Shown one piece after another: positions 4,094-48,081 of a stretch of 64,000 nt of DNA (positions are counted from its first letter, which is position 1; each line of letters begins with the position of its first letter). The notes below the pieces were generated by a model. That model did no database searches and was not told the DNA's origin. It saw only the letters and a program-made list of their open reading frames with translations. Location: the NCBI GenBank assembly GCA_045862955.1, contig BTVI01000003.1, positions 47,552 through 111,551 of the forward strand, read 5' to 3'. The position numbers and the translations under genes were made by a program. This stretch comes from Fimbriimonadales bacterium. Lineage in GTDB: Bacteria; Armatimonadota; Fimbriimonadia; Fimbriimonadales; JABRVX01.

Positions 4094-7003
4094 ATGCCGC
4101 AGGACAAGATCGTCGTCGTTGGAGCACGCCAACACAACCTGAAGAACATCACCGTAGAGATCCCGCGTGACAAGCTGGTGGTGATCACCGGCCTCTCGGG
4201 TTCGGGCAAGTCCAGCCTCGCCTTCGACACCATCTATGCGGAGGGGCAGCGCCGGTACGTCGAGAGCCTCTCCGTCTACGCTCGGCAGTTCTTGGGGCAG
4301 ATGGACAAGCCGGACGTGGACCACATAGACGGCCTCTCCCCCGCTGTCTCGATTGATCAGAAGGGCGCCAGCAAGAACCCCCGCTCTACGGTGGGCACGG
4401 TGACAGAGATCTACGACTACCTTCGCGTGCTGTTCGCACGGGTCGGCATTCCCCACTGCCCTCAGTGCGGCGAGCCCATCACTCGGCAGTCGGTGGAGCA
4501 GATCACGGACGCGGTGCTCGGGCTCCCCACGGGCAGCAAGATCCAGGTGCTGGCCCCGTTGGTTCGGGGACGAAAGGGGGAGTACAGGCAGGTGCTCCAA
4601 GACGTGCACCGGCAGGGTTTCGTGCGCGTGCGAGTGGATGGCCTAATCTACGAGGTGACCGACGACATCCCGATGGACCGGTACAAACAGCACACGATCG
4701 AAGCGGTGGTGGACCGCCTCGTGGTGAAGGAGGGTATCGAGCAACGGCTAGCCGACTCCATCGAGACCGGACTGCGGCTGGGCAAGGGGCACCTGGTGAT
4801 CCTGGGCCCGAACGGCGACGAGCGCATGTTCTCGGAGCAGTTTGCGTGCCCACGCTGCGACATCAGCGTCGGCGAGATCGAGCCCCGGACCTTCTCCTTC
4901 AACAGCCCGTACGGAGCGTGCTCCGAGTGCACAGGCTTGGGTTTTCGGCGCGAGTTCGATATCCAGCTGATGGTGCCGGACTCGACCAAATCGGTCCGCG
5001 AAGGCGCGCTGGCCCCATTCATGCACAAGAGCGGTGATCCGAAGTCCTGGTACCCGGAGCTGTTCGAAGCGGTGGCGGAGCGTGTCGGCTTCGACATAGA
5101 CACTCCCTGGCAAGACCTCGCTCCCAAACACGTTGCGGCGCTGATGGACGGAGTGGAAGGCAAGGTTTCCGTCCGCCTGGGCAGCCGCTTCGGACGCGCC
5201 CGCTACTTCGAGACGGATTTCCCCGGCGTAAAGGCCATCCTTCGCAAGAAGTATGAGCAGACCGAGTCCGATTGGGTGAAGCAGGACCTCGAGCAGTACA
5301 TGGCGGAGCGCCCCTGCCCTGCTTGCGGCGGCAAGCGGCTGAAACCCGAAGCCCTCTCGGTGACCTTGGCCGGGAAGGCCATCTCAGACGTCACCTCGAT
5401 GTCCGTGAGCCAGGCCGCCGAGTTCTTCGCTCGTCTGCCGAAGGAGTTGCGTGAGCGCGAACGCTTCATCGCCAGCCGCCTCATCAAGGAGATCCGGGAG
5501 CGGCTAGACTTTCTTAGCGGCGTGGGCGTGGGCTATCTGACGCTGGACCGGACGGCGCGGACGCTTGCGGGCGGCGAGGCCCAGCGTATCCGACTGGCGA
5601 CGCAGATAGGCAGCGGGCTAATGGGCGTGTTGTACATCCTAGACGAGCCTTCAATCGGCTTGCACCAACGGGACAACCGCAAACTGATTGGGACGCTGGA
5701 GCGGCTGCGCGACCTGGGCAACACCGTGATCGTAGTGGAGCATGACGAGGAGACCATGCTGGCCGCCGACCACATCATCGACCTCGGCCCCGGGGCAGGC
5801 GAGCACGGCGGACATGTGGTCGCGGAGGGCACCGTGGAGCAGATTCGGCGCACTCCGGGGAGTATCACGGGGGCTTACCTGCGCGGCGAGCGGGCGATCC
5901 CAGTACCGGTGCGACGACGCCCGGTGAACGACAAGTGGATCGTGATCCGAGGCGCTCGCGCGCACAACCTGAAGAACGTGGAGGCGAGGATCCCGCTCGG
6001 CGTGTTCGTGTGTGTGACGGGCGTGTCGGGCAGCGGCAAGTCCACGCTGATCCAGGAGACGCTGTTTCCGCGCCTCATGTACCACGTCTACGGCACTCGA
6101 ACCGTGTGGGGCCCGCACGACGACATAACCGGCATGGAGCACGTGGACAAGGTGGTGGACATCGATCAGTCTCCAATCGGCCGCACACCGCGCAGCAATC
6201 CGGCTACCTATACCGGTGCGTTCAATATGATCCGTGATCTGTTCGCGCGCACGACGGACGCTCGGGTGCGCGGATACAAACCCGGGCGGTTCAGCTTCAA
6301 CGTGAAGGGCGGTCGCTGTGAGGCGTGCCAAGGCGACGGCATCATCAAGATAGAGATGCACTTCCTACCCGACGTGTACGTGCCGTGCGAGGTGTGCAAA
6401 GGCAAGCGCTACAACCGGGAGACGCTGGAGGTGAAGTACAAGGGTAAGTCCATCGCAGACGTGCTCGAGATGACTGTCGAGGAGGCCTTAGAGTTCTTCG
6501 GCCCAGTGCCGCCGCTCAAGCGCAAGATCGGCACGCTGATGGACGTTGGCCTAGGCTACATCAGACTGGGACAGCCTGCCACCACGCTTTCGGGAGGCGA
6601 GGCACAGCGCATCAAGTTGGCCGACCACCTATCGAAGCGAAGCACCGGCCGAACCGTGTACATTCTGGACGAGCCGACCACCGGTCTGCACTTCGAGGAC
6701 GTGAACAAGTTGCTGGGGGTGCTGCATCGCCTGGTAGATCAGGGCAACTCCGTCATCGTGATCGAGCACAACCTGGACGTCATCAAGACAGCCGATTGGG
6801 TATTGGACATGGGACCCGAGGGCGGCGATGAGGGAGGCCAGGTGATCGCCGAGGGGACGCCAGAGCAGGTCGCGGCCACGAAGGGGACCCATACCGGGCG
6901 CTACCTGAAGGCGATGCTCAAGGGTGCGCCACGGGGCGAACTCGGTGCCAGGGACGGCCGTCCCGTGGGTGAGGCCGAACCCGCTCTCGTGGGCGAGGGC
7001 TAA
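4094..7003 (+). CDS. uvrA: Excinuclease ABC subunit A
   Basis: Two ABC ATPase domains ([18 protein letters not shown]), CxxC zinc fingers, [19 protein letters not shown] before the ATG at 4094. Confidence 0.97.
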
Positions 7004-27960: not shown

Positions 27961-28062
27961 CACGCCTCCTCCTTGCACTCCGTGGCGATGGCAGAACTAC
28001 TCATGCTACACCCAACCGATTGCTCTGTCATTGCCTTCAAATCCAGGTCCGGCGGCCAAAGC

Positions 28063-28167
28063 GTCATGCTGAGCCTGTCGAAGCATGATCCCGTTAGCCG
28101 CACGCTATCGAGTTAGGATGCTACCATCGCGGTACCTGACCGCATGCTTCGATGGGCTCAGCATGAC
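28063..28167. repeat. 105-bp inverted-repeat element
   Basis: Same 25-bp arms (two mismatches in the right arm), 55-bp core. Confidence 0.9.
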
Positions 28168-28209
28168 GGGTCCTCGGCTATATCGAACGCGCAACCGATC
28201 AACGCAGCT

Positions 28210-30268: not shown

Positions 30269-31153
30269 CTAGACGGTCGTAGGCAGCCCCAGGCTCTCGA
30301 ACCGCGCCATCATCTCGCTCGTCTGCCCCTCGGTGAGGTCTAGCAAGGGTAGTCGCATCTTGCCACCGGGCAGCCCCCGTGCCCGTACGGCGGCCTTTCC
30401 AGCGGCGGGGAGGCCGTATTGGCGCAGCACATCGTTCATCGCCGACAGGCGCTCCTGAGCGCTCTCCGGATCGCCACCGGTCTGAAAGGCTCGCACCACC
30501 GCGACCGCGAGCTCCGGATAGGCGTTCGATGCCCCGCTCACCGTGCCCGCGCCGCCGAGGCGAAGACACTCCAGCAGCAGGTTCTCTTGCCCCACCATCA
30601 CGCACCTGCCCGGTAGCCTCTGGAGGGCAGCACGAAGGTAATCGGGTGAACCGGAGCTGTCCTTCATCCCCAGCAGGTTCGGGTGGTCGGCAAGCTCGGC
30701 GAGCGTCTCGATCTCGATGGGAGTGTCGGTGATTTGCGGAATGTTGTACAGCAGCACCGGCAGTCGAGCGGCGTCTAGCACCCGCAGGTAGTACTCGCGC
30801 ACTCCGGCCTGCGGCGGATTCTTGAAATAGTAGGGTGGCATCACGAGAGCGGCATCACAGCCTTCTGCGGCCGCGTGCTTGTTCAGCAGGTTGGTGTCTT
30901 CGAGGTTCGCCGAGCCCGTCCCGGCGATGATGCGCAGTTTCCCGCGGTGCGTGGCGGCCAGCGTGAACAGGTCCATGCGCTCGCGCACGGTCATCGAGGC
31001 TGCCTCACCGTTGGTGCCGCTAACCACCACGCCGTCGCAACCCACCGACTCGTGCCACGCCAGCAACCGCACGAACGCCGCCGAGTCGATCCGCCCCTCC
31101 TCGTCGAACGGCGTGATCACCGCCGGAAACACCCCGAACAACCTCTGTCCCAT
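30269..31153 (-). CDS. DapA/NanA-family class I aldolase
   Basis: ITPF, GTNGE, PPYY, YNIP, GMKDSSG; substrate not resolvable. Confidence 0.88.
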   Translation of the reverse strand: MGQRLFGVFPAVITPFDEEGRIDSAAFVRLLAWHESVGCDGVVVSGTNGEAASMTVRERMDLFTLAATHRGKLRIIAGTGSANLEDTNLLNKHAAAEGCDAALVMPPYYFKNPPQAGVREYYLRVLDAARLPVLLYNIPQITDTPIEIETLAELADHPNLLGMKDSSGSPDYLRAALQRLPGRCVMVGQENLLLECLRLGGAGTVSGASNAYPELAVAVVRAFQTGGDPESAQERLSAMNDVLRQYGLPAAGKAAVRARGLPGGKMRLPLLDLTEGQTSEMMARFESLGLPTTV

Positions 31154-31393
31154 ACCCAAAGCCTACCCGACCAGGCCTCCCGCGCTCCCGCCCCCTCAGT
31201 GCCTCCTTCATCCTTCACCACTCGCCGTGGTGAGGCAAGCATGATGTGCGATACGCAAGAGGACTTGTCAGACTAGCCACGAAGCAAGCTGCGGAGTGCC
31301 GTACTCAGCCACCCGGTTGCCCGCGGGATTGCGGGGTGGCGCGGGACCAAGGGCGGGGATAACCGCAGTCCAACAGAAGAGTCTCCAAGAAAG

Positions 31394-31413
31394 TGACACT
31401 ATATATGGTGTCA
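31394..31413. promoter_or_regulatory. Near-perfect 20-bp palindrome, candidate HicB operator
   Basis: TGACACTA-TATA-TGGTGTCA, 10 nt upstream of the toxin start, next to TATAAT (31420-31425). Confidence 0.6.
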
Positions 31414-31423
31414 AGACGGTATA

Positions 31424-31699
31424 ATGATAAAGAGACGCCTTGTAGACGTCTGGAGGGACGGGAACCGTGCAGGACATCGAGTCGACGAGGTGTTGGCCGA
31501 ACTGAAGCGGTTGGACTTCAGCCTCGTGCTGACGACCAAGGGCCACTACAAGATATGGCATCCGAAGCTCGAATGCTGCCCGCACTTCCCGATGGGGTTC
31601 ATCTTGATAAACCCCCATGCTTTCGGAAGGCAGGGCGAAGTCCACCCGGCCGCCATCCGGGACATACTGAAGGCCCTAGATTGGATTGAACAGGAATGA
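31424..31699 (+). CDS. hicA: HicA-like toxin (dsRBD-fold mRNA interferase)
   Basis: 91 aa; KGHYKIWHP resembles the HicA G-S-H motif; second His in INPH; C-terminal helix VHPAAIRDILKAL; ATGA overlap with the hicB-like gene. Confidence 0.7.
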   Translation: MIKRRLVDVWRDGNRAGHRVDEVLAELKRLDFSLVLTTKGHYKIWHPKLECCPHFPMGFILINPHAFGRQGEVHPAAIRDILKALDWIEQE

Positions 31700-32292
31700 A
31701 GACGCTGAATGAGTTGCTGAACGCCTACACGATCAAGGTCACGCCTCTGCCTGCTTCGGATGGTGGGGGGTTCGAGGCGATCTACGAAGAGCTTGCGTCA
31801 ACCGCTGCCGGCTATGGTGAAACGCCTGCGGCGGCCGTTGACGCACTCCGCGAGCTTGCAGAGAACGGACTGTCGGACGAGCCGCTGGATAGCATGCCCG
31901 CACCACGGACCCACGCGCCGTGGGCGTCGTACAGCGGGCGGGTAACGCTGCGCCTGCCGAAGACCCTCCACGCCCGCCTCGACCGGCTGGCGGACGAACA
32001 AGGCGTGAGCCTTAACCAACTGATGGTTCAGGCCCTCCAGTCCGCTGCGGATGCCCTCACCGCAGGCCTGGACTTCGGCCCCGTATTGCCCGCAACGTCT
32101 CCGTCAATCATCGGCGAGATGCGAGAGGTTCGAGCGGCCATGGACGAGGTAGCGAGTTCATCACTCGTCGTGATTCCTGCTGTTGACTTCGAACCGCAGT
32201 ATCGGCGCACCGGTAAGAGGCACGGACTGAAATTCGAGCGCATCGGAGGTGACGATGGTGGCTACGGGCGTATCGAGCCCAGTATCTGCTGA
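31696..32292 (+). CDS. hicB: HicB-family antitoxin (partial RNase H fold plus RHH) with an about 80-aa C-terminal extension
   Basis: GGGFEAIYEEL..GYGETPAAAV and YSGRVTLRLPKTLHARLDRLADEQGVSLNQL. Confidence 0.88.
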   Translation: MKTLNELLNAYTIKVTPLPASDGGGFEAIYEELASTAAGYGETPAAAVDALRELAENGLSDEPLDSMPAPRTHAPWASYSGRVTLRLPKTLHARLDRLADEQGVSLNQLMVQALQSAADALTAGLDFGPVLPATSPSIIGEMREVRAAMDEVASSSLVVIPAVDFEPQYRRTGKRHGLKFERIGGDDGGYGRIEPSIC

Positions 32293-32800
32293 GGAGTTCG
32301 CCGCATTCCTCTCTGGTCTCGTTATGCGGTCCATCAGGATTGTGCGCTGCGAGGCCGAGGTTGCATCGCGCCCGGCAACTGACGACTCTCAGGCCCTGCT
32401 GGAATTCGGCGAGGACGCCGAGCTGGTGACTTGCGAGGATCGAATCGCCGTGGTCCATGCAACGTACGGGGTGCGCCTCATTGTGCTTGGAGCCGACGGT
32501 GTGCCAGAGGGACAGCCGGCTGCCGAGCTCACCGTAACGTATCGAGTGGAGTACGACGTGGAGTCCCCGATGACAGAAGACATCTTCGCGGAGTTCCGTA
32601 AGGTCACCTTGCGCTTGCACACGATACCGTTTGCTCGTGAGTGGATACGCGAGACTTCAGCTCGAATGGGCATCAGACCGATCTTGCTGCCGTTGGCGCT
32701 GTCGCACCCCGCTGCCGTACCGCATCGGCCAGCGCCTGGGTCAGGCAGCCCGACGCGAGGAAAGCGAGTGCGGGCGAGCCGAAGGCCGGCTGTTGATTGA
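32255..32800 (+). CDS. SecB-like chaperone
   Basis: Beta-rich acidic N-terminal half; IPFAREWIRETSARMGIRPILLP matches the SecB P-F/Y-x-R...G-x-x-P-x-x-L-P pattern; GGAGG RBS; overlaps the hicB end by 38 nt. Confidence 0.75.
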   Translation: MVATGVSSPVSAEEFAAFLSGLVMRSIRIVRCEAEVASRPATDDSQALLEFGEDAELVTCEDRIAVVHATYGVRLIVLGADGVPEGQPAAELTVTYRVEYDVESPMTEDIFAEFRKVTLRLHTIPFAREWIRETSARMGIRPILLPLALSHPAAVPHRPAPGSGSPTRGKRVRASRRPAVD

Positions 32801-32984
32801 GAGTGTTCCATGCCCCGAGCCTCCGGCTGCGGGGCCGGCAGGTGACCTTTCTCCCTCGGCGAAGCCCAGCAGCCGAGCGTCGGGGCTTCCTACGCTCCTG
32901 CGACGGCGCGGTCCCTGCCTCCCCGACCCCGGTCGGTCACAGCCAGTAGCCCGGGACGCGGCCCGGGGCATAGAGGCCTGAAGC

Positions 32985-33992
32985 CTACCCCCACCGGTCG
33001 AAGAGGCTGCTGACGGACATGTCGAGGTGCACGCGGCGGATGGCTTCGGCGAGAAGCGGAGCGGCGGGGAGCACCGTCAGTTTCGGGAAGCGCTTCGTAC
33101 GATCGATCGGCACCGTATCCGTGCACACCACCAGCGAGATGCCCGAGGACTCCAGCCGCTTCGGCGCATCGCCGGAAAGCACTCCGTGCGTGCAGCACGC
33201 CACCACGTCGACCGCGCCCCGGTGGAACAGCGCATCGGCGCCCTGAACGATGGAGCCCGCCGTGTCGATCATGTCGTCTATCATGATGCACGTCTTGCCT
33301 TCCACCTCGCCAATGATCTCCATGATGTCCACCTTGTTCGGTTCCGGGCGGCGCTTGGCGATGATAGCGATAGGCGCACCGAGCTGCTCCGCGAGCCTCC
33401 GCGCCCGTGGCACGCCCGCCACGTCCGGTGACACCACCACCGTGTCCCGTAGGTGCATCTCGTGTTCTATCAGGTACTGCCCGATCAGCGGCCCCGCATA
33501 CAGGTGGTCCACCGGCAGGTCGAAGAATCCCTGAATCTGGTCTGCGTGCAAATCCACGCACATGATGCGGTCTGCGCCTGCGTTGGTGATCAGATTCGCC
33601 ACCAGGCGCGCGCTAACCGGCTCACGGGGCTTAACTTTCTTGTCTTGGCGCGCATATCCGTAATAGGGCATCACCACCGAGATGCGCCGCGCAGAGGCCC
33701 GACGGAACGCATCCAGCATGATCAGCAGTTCCATCAGGTTGTCGTTCACGGGCGCGCACGTGGGCTGAATGATGAACACGTCGTCCCCGCGCGTGCTCTC
33801 TTCGATCTGGACGCGTATCTCGCCGTCCGAAAAGCGTGAACATCGGATCTGTCCCAACGTGGTCCCTAACGACTCGGCAATGCGCTCCGACAGCTCCGGG
33901 TTGGCGTTGCCGGTGAAGAGTTTCATTCCGGTCGGTTCGCCGATATCCATGTGGATCGCCGCCTGGGCTTTGCCTATTGTTTGGTCCGCCAT
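32985..33992 (-). CDS. prs: Ribose-phosphate pyrophosphokinase
   Basis: FSDGE, PYYGYARQDKK, DLHADQIQGFF, DDMIDTAGS; start could be 33950. Confidence 0.96.
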   Translation of the reverse strand: MADQTIGKAQAAIHMDIGEPTGMKLFTGNANPELSERIAESLGTTLGQIRCSRFSDGEIRVQIEESTRGDDVFIIQPTCAPVNDNLMELLIMLDAFRRASARRISVVMPYYGYARQDKKVKPREPVSARLVANLITNAGADRIMCVDLHADQIQGFFDLPVDHLYAGPLIGQYLIEHEMHLRDTVVVSPDVAGVPRARRLAEQLGAPIAIIAKRRPEPNKVDIMEIIGEVEGKTCIMIDDMIDTAGSIVQGADALFHRGAVDVVACCTHGVLSGDAPKRLESSGISLVVCTDTVPIDRTKRFPKLTVLPAAPLLAEAIRRVHLDMSVSSLFDRWG

Positions 33993-35347
33993 TTCCGTGC
34001 CCACTCCTCTTTGTTCACTTGCCGGGCCCTGCCGATTGCCAGTGCATCCGGCTCGACGTCCTCGGTGATCGTGGAGCCCGCCGCCGTAAAGGCTCCGTCC
34101 CCGATCTGCACCGGTGCAACGAGCGTACTGTTCGAGCCGATGAACACGCCTTTGCCGATTACCGTCCGGTGCTTTCGCTTCCCATCGTAGTTGCAGGTGA
34201 TAGTGCCCGCCCCGATGTTAGTGTCCGACCCGACCGTCGCATCTCCCACGTACGCGAGGTGCCCGATGCTCACATCGTCTCCAATCTGGGAGTTCTTCAA
34301 CTCCACGAAATCCCCTATCGAGCAGTTGCGTCCGACCTTTGTTCCCGGTCGCAGATGAGCAAACGGGCCGACCCGAGTACCGAAACCGATCTCGCTCTCC
34401 ACCACGTTGCTGCTCAGGACGGTGGCGCCGTCCTCCACGATGCCGTCCACGATTCGCGTCCCTGGGCCGATCGTGCAGTTGCGCCCGATGCGTGTCGTCC
34501 CCTTAATGCAGCACCCCGGCTCTACGACGGTGTCCGGGCCGATCTGGACGTCCATGTCCACATAGCTGTTCTTCGGGTCGGTGATGGTCACGCCGCTCGT
34601 CGCCAGATCCTTCAGCTTGCGCATCCGCAGGACTTCGGCTGCCTGACTTAGTTGCCAGCGGTCGTTCACACCCATCAGCAGCGTGGGATCCGGCGTTGTC
34701 CAAGTAGCCACACGGTAGCCGGCTGCTGCAGCGAGGCCGATGATGTCCGTGAGGTAGTACTCTTGCTGTGCGTTGTCCGCTTTGAGTCGTGGCAGCAGGT
34801 CGGCCAACAACGCCACCTCGAAGCAATAGAGCGAGGTGCAGACTTCCTTGATTAGGCGCTGCTGGGGTGTGCAGTCGCGCTCTTCGACGATCCCCACCGG
34901 CTCTCCCGCCTGGTTTCGCAGCACGCGCCCGTAGCCCGTCGGGTCGTCGTACTGGCACACCGCAAAGGTGAGCTGCGCCCCCATCTCCTCGTGAGTTCTC
35001 AGCAGCGAGGTCAACATCTCGCCGGTCACTAGCGGTGCGTCGCCGGGCATCGTCAGGGCGCGCGTGGCACCCTGGTTGCGTAGCGCGGGAAGCGCTTGCA
35101 TCAGAGCATGCCCTGTCCCCAGTTGCTCGCTCTGGGCAGCGTAGTCGTTCTGAGGGCCGAGCACATCCTGCACTCGCTCGGCACCGTGCCCGACAACGAC
35201 GATGGGGCGGGGAACGCCTGCCGAGCGCATCGCGCGCACGCAGTGCTCGGTCAGAGGGATGCCACAGACAGGGTGGAGGGCTTTGGGTAGCTCGGACACC
35301 ATGCGCGTGCCTTTGCCTGCGGCGAGGATCACTCCGGACAGTGTCAA
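33974..35347 (-). CDS. glmU: Bifunctional UDP-GlcNAc pyrophosphorylase / GlcN-1-P acetyltransferase
   Basis: LAAGKGTRM, QLGTGHA, EYYLTD, hexapeptide repeats, NYDG. Confidence 0.96.
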   Translation of the reverse strand: MTLSGVILAAGKGTRMVSELPKALHPVCGIPLTEHCVRAMRSAGVPRPIVVVGHGAERVQDVLGPQNDYAAQSEQLGTGHALMQALPALRNQGATRALTMPGDAPLVTGEMLTSLLRTHEEMGAQLTFAVCQYDDPTGYGRVLRNQAGEPVGIVEERDCTPQQRLIKEVCTSLYCFEVALLADLLPRLKADNAQQEYYLTDIIGLAAAAGYRVATWTTPDPTLLMGVNDRWQLSQAAEVLRMRKLKDLATSGVTITDPKNSYVDMDVQIGPDTVVEPGCCIKGTTRIGRNCTIGPGTRIVDGIVEDGATVLSSNVVESEIGFGTRVGPFAHLRPGTKVGRNCSIGDFVELKNSQIGDDVSIGHLAYVGDATVGSDTNIGAGTITCNYDGKRKHRTVIGKGVFIGSNSTLVAPVQIGDGAFTAAGSTITEDVEPDALAIGRARQVNKEEWARKWRTKQ

Positions 35348-47499: not shown

Positions 47500-48081
47500 A
47501 TGATGCTCGTCGTTTCGCTCGATGACTTCCTCGAGGCGATCAAGCGCCACGATCCGACTGGACAGCGCACCGTGTACCGGCACGTGACCAATATCCCCTC
47601 CGCTGCGGGCTCCAGCTCGTTGTTCGGCGGCGGTCCGTCCAACCAGGGCCATATACTCCACGTGACTTACGGGGTGCCGCGGGAGGGGTTCGTCATCGCC
47701 GCAGAGGGCCTCGTCGGTTCCATGCAGGAGGTATCCGACTTCGAGTACACCCTGAAACAGCACGGCATCACGGTGGTAGAGGGGGTTTGGATGGACCAGC
47801 CACCGCAAGGTGCCCGCCAGCCTGCCGCCGAGCGAGTGGCCCCCACAGGCCAATATTGGGTCGCTGCCGTCGCCTATCAGAGTGCCGAGGACGAGCCCGG
47901 CCTGTGGATGGACGCGTTCGACCGCGAACCCAACGAGGAAGAGGTGCTGCGGGCTATGTATGACGAGTTCGTGCGCTCGGGCGACCTGGTGGATGCCAGT
48001 TACGAGGACTTCGTGACAGAAGCCACCCCCACCGTGCAGATTGCAAGCGCCCGCGACATCCAGGAGTGGATGAGGCAGTAG
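47500..48081 (+). CDS. Hypothetical acidic protein
   Basis: AGGAGG RBS, operon-like spacing; no motif recognised. Confidence 0.75.
   Translation: MMLVVSLDDFLEAIKRHDPTGQRTVYRHVTNIPSAAGSSSLFGGGPSNQGHILHVTYGVPREGFVIAAEGLVGSMQEVSDFEYTLKQHGITVVEGVWMDQPPQGARQPAAERVAPTGQYWVAAVAYQSAEDEPGLWMDAFDREPNEEEVLRAMYDEFVRSGDLVDASYEDFVTEATPTVQIASARDIQEWMRQ

Follow-up and report, generated by a model that had tools for sequence, protein, structure and literature searches.

In toxin–antitoxin–chaperone (TAC) systems, the dependence of the antitoxin on its chaperone and the chaperone-addiction (ChAD) element of the antitoxin have been tested experimentally (PMC5105189), and a phage protein has been described to compete for the chaperone (bioRxiv 2024.02.24.581848; PMC11618068). 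A prediction of HicB-type TACs with RHH domains dates from 2012 (PMC3581621), and the HicAB-SecB system Mmet-TAC of Methylomonas methanica MC09 was validated in 2016, with a required chaperone and a transferable ChAD (PMC5105189), so that this kind of system is already known. Here we describe a candidate TAC operon of a Fimbriimonadales bacterium from sludge (Armatimonadota; assembly GCA_045862955.1, contig BTVI01000003.1), located in a stretch of 64,000 nucleotides (positions 47,552 to 111,551 of the contig), which was analyzed as a whole and is referred to as the window. A sequence-only reading had proposed a HicAB-based TAC at this position and had regarded HicAB-SecB combinations as bioinformatic predictions with little characterisation, which Mmet-TAC qualifies. 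That none had been described from this lineage agrees with our search of mostly non-subscription literature, which found no work joining Armatimonad, toxin-antitoxin, and SecB, and none on phage defence by a HicAB TAC; the TAC lists in the supplements of PMC3581621 and PMC5105189 may hold closer relatives.

Very probably, the operon works as a toxin–antitoxin–chaperone switch. The folds, the gene order, and a palindrome are observed, as is the finding that an antitoxin tail and the chaperone gene are present or absent together. Three overlapping open reading frames (ORFs) on the plus strand are flanked by two minus-strand genes, one of the DHDPS family and prs: a hicA-like toxin gene (31424–31699; 91 aa, predicted dsRBD-like RNase), hicB (31696–32292; 198 aa), and a gene for a SecB-fold chaperone (32255–32800; 181 aa). 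The overlap is 4 nt between hicA and hicB (ATGA) and 38 nt between hicB and the chaperone gene. As the same gene order is kept in 23 loci with differing neighbours, and contigs of the runs X4, X6, and X7 from three studies cover the whole operon with zero indels, the arrangement is more than chance. GC at third codon positions is 0.68–0.73 in the three ORFs and 0.78–0.82 in four flanking genes.

Compared by description and not by sequence, Mmet-TAC shares with the window operon the gene order, the HicAB pair, the C-terminal antitoxin extension, and the SecB-like third gene, but it comes from another phylum, its tail has 41 aa in contrast to about 70, and the window chaperone misses PF02556. 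The M. tuberculosis TAC (HigB1-HigA1-Rv1957) has a HigB toxin and an HTH antitoxin, unlike the HicA-type toxin and RHH antitoxin of the window, and the window tail differs by its Ile-Cys end. E. coli HigBAC and CmdTAC also possess a SecB-like chaperone, and the window chaperone faintly matches the PD-T4-9_C model (E 0.021). HigBAC further resembles the window system in its long tail with four aromatic residues and no ClpX end, and it is independent of ClpXP. However, the toxins differ, the window aromates are spaced by 4, 11, and 10 residues and not by about 30, and demonstrated phage triggers and prophage contexts belong to HigBAC and CmdTAC, whereas the window system is known from its sequence. 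Class 4 hicAB (bioRxiv 2023.12.08.570793) has the same hicA-hicB order, an RHH antitoxin, and a palindromic operator, and 24 relatives of the window locus have this plain form, whereas the window adds tail and chaperone, and its longer HicA carries an N-terminal helix as well as an insertion ahead of strand 3. That HicA classification makes no mention of a chaperone or TAC.

The tail and the chaperone gene were also followed among relatives. A toxin-profile search matched 36 of 401 genomes of the phylum and 18 of 228 genomes of the order, and 56 loci were examined once duplicates had been dropped along with a single toxin lying at the end of a contig. Nine of these were set aside, namely five lacking the RHH Asn, one truncated at a contig end, and three whose chaperone genes are broken, which left 47 for comparison. 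Where a chaperone gene is present (23 loci, of which a contig end truncates one), HicB extends by a median of 68 residues past the RHH Asn, and 22 of the 23 reach 55 residues, a cut-off picked after data inspection; the 24 loci that lack it have a median of 39, with four reaching 55. The aromatic share of the tail is 99/1137 (8.7%) with and 9/521 (1.7%) without the chaperone, and a broader profile found no missed chaperones in the 24 loci lacking one. On a tree of the HicB core without the tail, chaperone presence changed 14 times, and among seven independent pairs, on average 5.3 pointed in the same direction and 0.0 were opposed (median p 0.06). The exceptions are long tails without a chaperone in L061, L082, L083, and L084, and a short tail with a chaperone in L079. 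The family thus has the variable aromatic C-terminal extension, mostly missing from two-gene homologues, that marks TAC systems, and this co-variation speaks for the sequence-only proposal that the HicB tail is a ChAD element, which we likewise infer.

The 24 loci that keep hicAB without the chaperone gene could also mean that HicAB is self-sufficient and that the SecB-like protein, although co-transcribed, serves as a chaperone for general purposes or for export, apart from toxin control. This would fit a genome in which PF02556 SecB was not found and the window chaperone is the only member of its family, and overexpressed TAC chaperones can replace E. coli SecB (PMC5105189). However, the chaperone gene is absent from most genomes and therefore no housekeeping gene, 18 of 19 non-self chaperone matches in the phylum set follow a toxin/antitoxin-type gene (the exception is L039), and loci without the chaperone gene mostly lack the aromatic tail as well, which makes this explanation very unlikely. 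At L039 (G228:C41), the SecB-like gene stands behind a 256-aa ORF without a Pfam family, with no recognisable antitoxin.

Closely related loci with and without the third gene illustrate the unit in question. A genome of the same family (G002) has the orthologous pair with 49% and 59% identity and the same operator, with a HicB of 142 aa and no chaperone gene. In one genus, the genomes G163 and G179 are colinear with 84–89% identity on either side of the locus, and a block of about 580 nt comprising tail and chaperone gene in L102 stands where L122 has a short tail end, with the boundary just past the residue equivalent to G128. The same chaperone family is also found downstream of Gp49/HTH pairs with tailed antitoxins (L030, L034). 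Broken chaperone genes were seen in L044, L056, and L058, and the HicB tail is also shortened in L044 and L058 but intact in L056. At L061 / L127 (G337:C170, around 5000–6400), the gene next after hicAB, whose HicB has a 95-residue tail, belongs to DUF6941 (E 8.6e-31) and is not SecB-like, and a Type IIG restriction-methylase adjoins this locus; possibly, the DUF6941 protein replaces the chaperone as partner. At L005 / L063 (G028:C1:844875-845962), a TAC-like operon encodes a HicB that has no RHH domain and whose short aromatic tail ends with Ala-Ala; the sequence upstream gave no match to the operator pattern.

The sequence-only reading had named a 91-aa HicA-like toxin, a HicB with its tail, and a SecB-fold third protein, encoded by three overlapping genes opposite in strand to both neighbours. 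The ORF positions, the quoted tail sequence, and the predicted folds of the first and third proteins bear this out, and the extent of the HicB domains had to be revised. PF05534 HicB matched the antitoxin at residues 74–114 (E 1.4e-11; 44.6 bits, cut-off 21), and RHH_1 reached 22.1 bits (cut-off 20.5), both together covering residues 74–117; one relative (P0032) carries the source name 'RNase H-like HicB family'. Conservation runs to about residue 128, with invariant G124 and G128, and then collapses, so that the core (31696–32079) ends near 128 and not at 115, leaving a variable tail of about 70 and not 80 aa (residues ~129–198; 32080–32292). In the third protein, structure modelling indicated a SecB domain at about residues 12–152, followed by a low-confidence basic tail; this is the fold expected of a TAC chaperone. 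Its start is most likely ATG 32255, five bases past GGAGG (32245–32249), because the alternative GTG 32249 overlaps this motif and the protein database form has 181 aa.

The window tail contains the aromates F165, Y169, F180, and Y190 and ends with Ile-Cys, and thus lacks the Ala-Ala or Val-Ala end of ClpXP-dependent TACs; clpX is present in the genome. Such ends occur in 9 of 23 HicBs with and 1 of 24 without a chaperone gene. As the chaperone frame directly ahead of the start codon (32231–32263) reads S-E-V-T-M-V-A, resembling relatives' HicB tail ends such as E-E-A-M-V-A, an old frameshift near 32240 may have run the HicB tail into the chaperone gene, removed a Val-Ala degron, and ended chaperone dependence, leaving a decaying or altered TAC; the stretch may also be due to chance. 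The unusual 38-nt overlap and the tail length, the longest in the subgroup (91 versus 78 in L072), would agree with such an event. However, three other strains keep every one of the frames intact, two variant HicB proteins also have 198 aa, the N-terminal length of the chaperone fits its closest homologues, and the AA/VA end is also missing in 14 of 23 intact loci, as in the functional E. coli HigBAC, so that we regard a frameshift of this kind as unlikely.

For the toxin, modelling predicted the helix–three strands–helix fold of dsRBD-like HicA proteins, although the PF07927 score of 13.6 bits does not reach the cut-off of 27, and PF07927 matches only 2 of 15 family members even at E up to 1. 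By its sequence features, the toxin is a divergent branch of HicA. H41 (31544–31546) is invariant in 15/15 family members and lies between the strands 33–36 and 42–45; as a conserved His has a catalytic role in HicA toxins (PMC11594946), it is likely the catalytic residue of the predicted RNase.

A 20-bp palindrome, TGACAC-N8-GTGTCA (31394–31413), ends 10 nt before the hicA start and is likely the operator bound by the HicB RHH domain. It stands at the starting coordinate of the sequence-only finding, which did not mention it. With up to two mismatches, it precedes the toxin gene at 42 of the 56 related loci, compared with matches in about 1% of random 105-nt pieces, the pattern having been derived from the very loci that were scored; the exact palindrome occurs once in the genome, at the operon itself. 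A promoter of the window operon was sought but could not be placed. In L060, L090, L091, L093, and L051, the right arm of the operator also forms a -10 box, 17 nt past TTGACA-like hexamers and 5–12 nt before the start codon, which suggests leaderless or near-leaderless transcripts at these loci.

In a TAC switch of this type, the chaperone would bind the aromatic HicB tail and keep HicB soluble and folded, while HicB would mask His41 of HicA and, through the upstream palindrome, repress its own operon. As extrapolated from tested TACs, a competing unfolded client would occupy the chaperone, HicB would aggregate or be degraded, and freed HicA would cut RNA and stop translation. With the Ile-Cys end, HicB removal by aggregation or a non-ClpXP route appears more likely, as in E. 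coli HigBAC. By analogy, the trigger could well be a newly made phage protein, which we consider likelier than general folding stress or pure addiction, though with less than even confidence.

The candidate phage-defence role had only been suggested, and the support for it is indirect. Tested E. coli TACs sense phage proteins, and the chaperone is patchily distributed (5 of 61 near genomes; at least 20 of 401 phylum genomes). In G002, where the module is missing from this place, prs and the DHDPS gene are adjacent, and the prs 3' end borders a variable slot. In G001, the 6.6 kb upstream of the DHDPS gene contain a PLD-SNF2 helicase and a Type IIG restriction-methylase, so that the slot differs in content between G002, G001, and the window and once holds defence-like cargo. 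Of 20 chaperone loci, 5 adjoin HEC-01, restriction-like, or CRISPR-Cas genes. On the other hand, several results weigh against a phage role: none of eight flanking window proteins had a PADLOC match, 12 of the 20 chaperone loci had no PADLOC neighbour, and enrichment was not clear, with a neighbour at E 1e-10 in 8/20 chaperone versus 6/20 plain loci (p 0.74) and ones that we judged convincing at 5 versus 2 loci (p 0.41). ORFs for this test were called crudely, and each protein was represented by its first 400 residues; the test excluded module genes and short ORFs and covered 108 of 164 called ORFs around the chaperone loci and 129 of 163 around the plain loci. The founding TAC was reported to respond to stress (PMC3581621). 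It is a serious possibility, albeit one we hold below an even chance, that the same mechanics sense general folding or export stress, or that the operon is an addictive passenger, with no phage role; the patchy spread, the G001 cargo, the five defence-adjacent loci, and the phage sensing of the E. coli systems point the other way.

Two side aspects concern these surroundings. In the G001 slot (L019, G001:C10:92231-98947; L020), the final 79 nt of prs occur again next to the helicase and the restriction-methylase, with the full prs on another contig, which suggests that an element integrated at the prs 3' end. At L118 (G040:C2:72000-80342), a TAC of the window's family lies directly upstream of a type I-C cas3-cas5-cas8-cas7 operon.

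Outside the module, the left flank is the DHDPS-family gene (30269–31159, minus strand; PF00701, E 4.6e-56), and the right flank is prs for ribose-phosphate pyrophosphokinase (32985–34004, minus strand; PF13793, E 2.9e-55). A palindromic repeat of about 108 bp at 28062–28170, which we take to be REP-like, gave 659 blastn pieces genome-wide, with many copies in G001, and a further dispersed repeat lies at about 32805–33000, immediately past the chaperone gene.

The added value of the window operon is the set of natural TA/TAC pairs to which it belongs. TAC modularity was formerly seen by laboratory tail grafting and now appears in nature, in near-identical loci that differ only by tail and chaperone gene, so that a comparison of genomes reveals the boundary of the addiction element. 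Since toxin and chaperone score below Pfam cut-offs, counts of such systems in little-studied phyla are probably too low. More speculatively, tail and chaperone may form a mobile phage-sensing cassette that Armatimonadota have repeatedly added to and lost from one HicAB lineage and have also added to other toxin families, which would be the first HicA-armed anti-phage TAC and would unite ClpXP-type and protease-independent tails in one family, while some relatives may swap in DUF6941. The natural pairs with and without tail and chaperone suit tests of a possible phage role. Without phage defence, the operon would be one more example of the type validated in 2016; if one family member defends against phage, this would give HicA toxins a direct role against phages, a role that a 2024 review counts as not validated.
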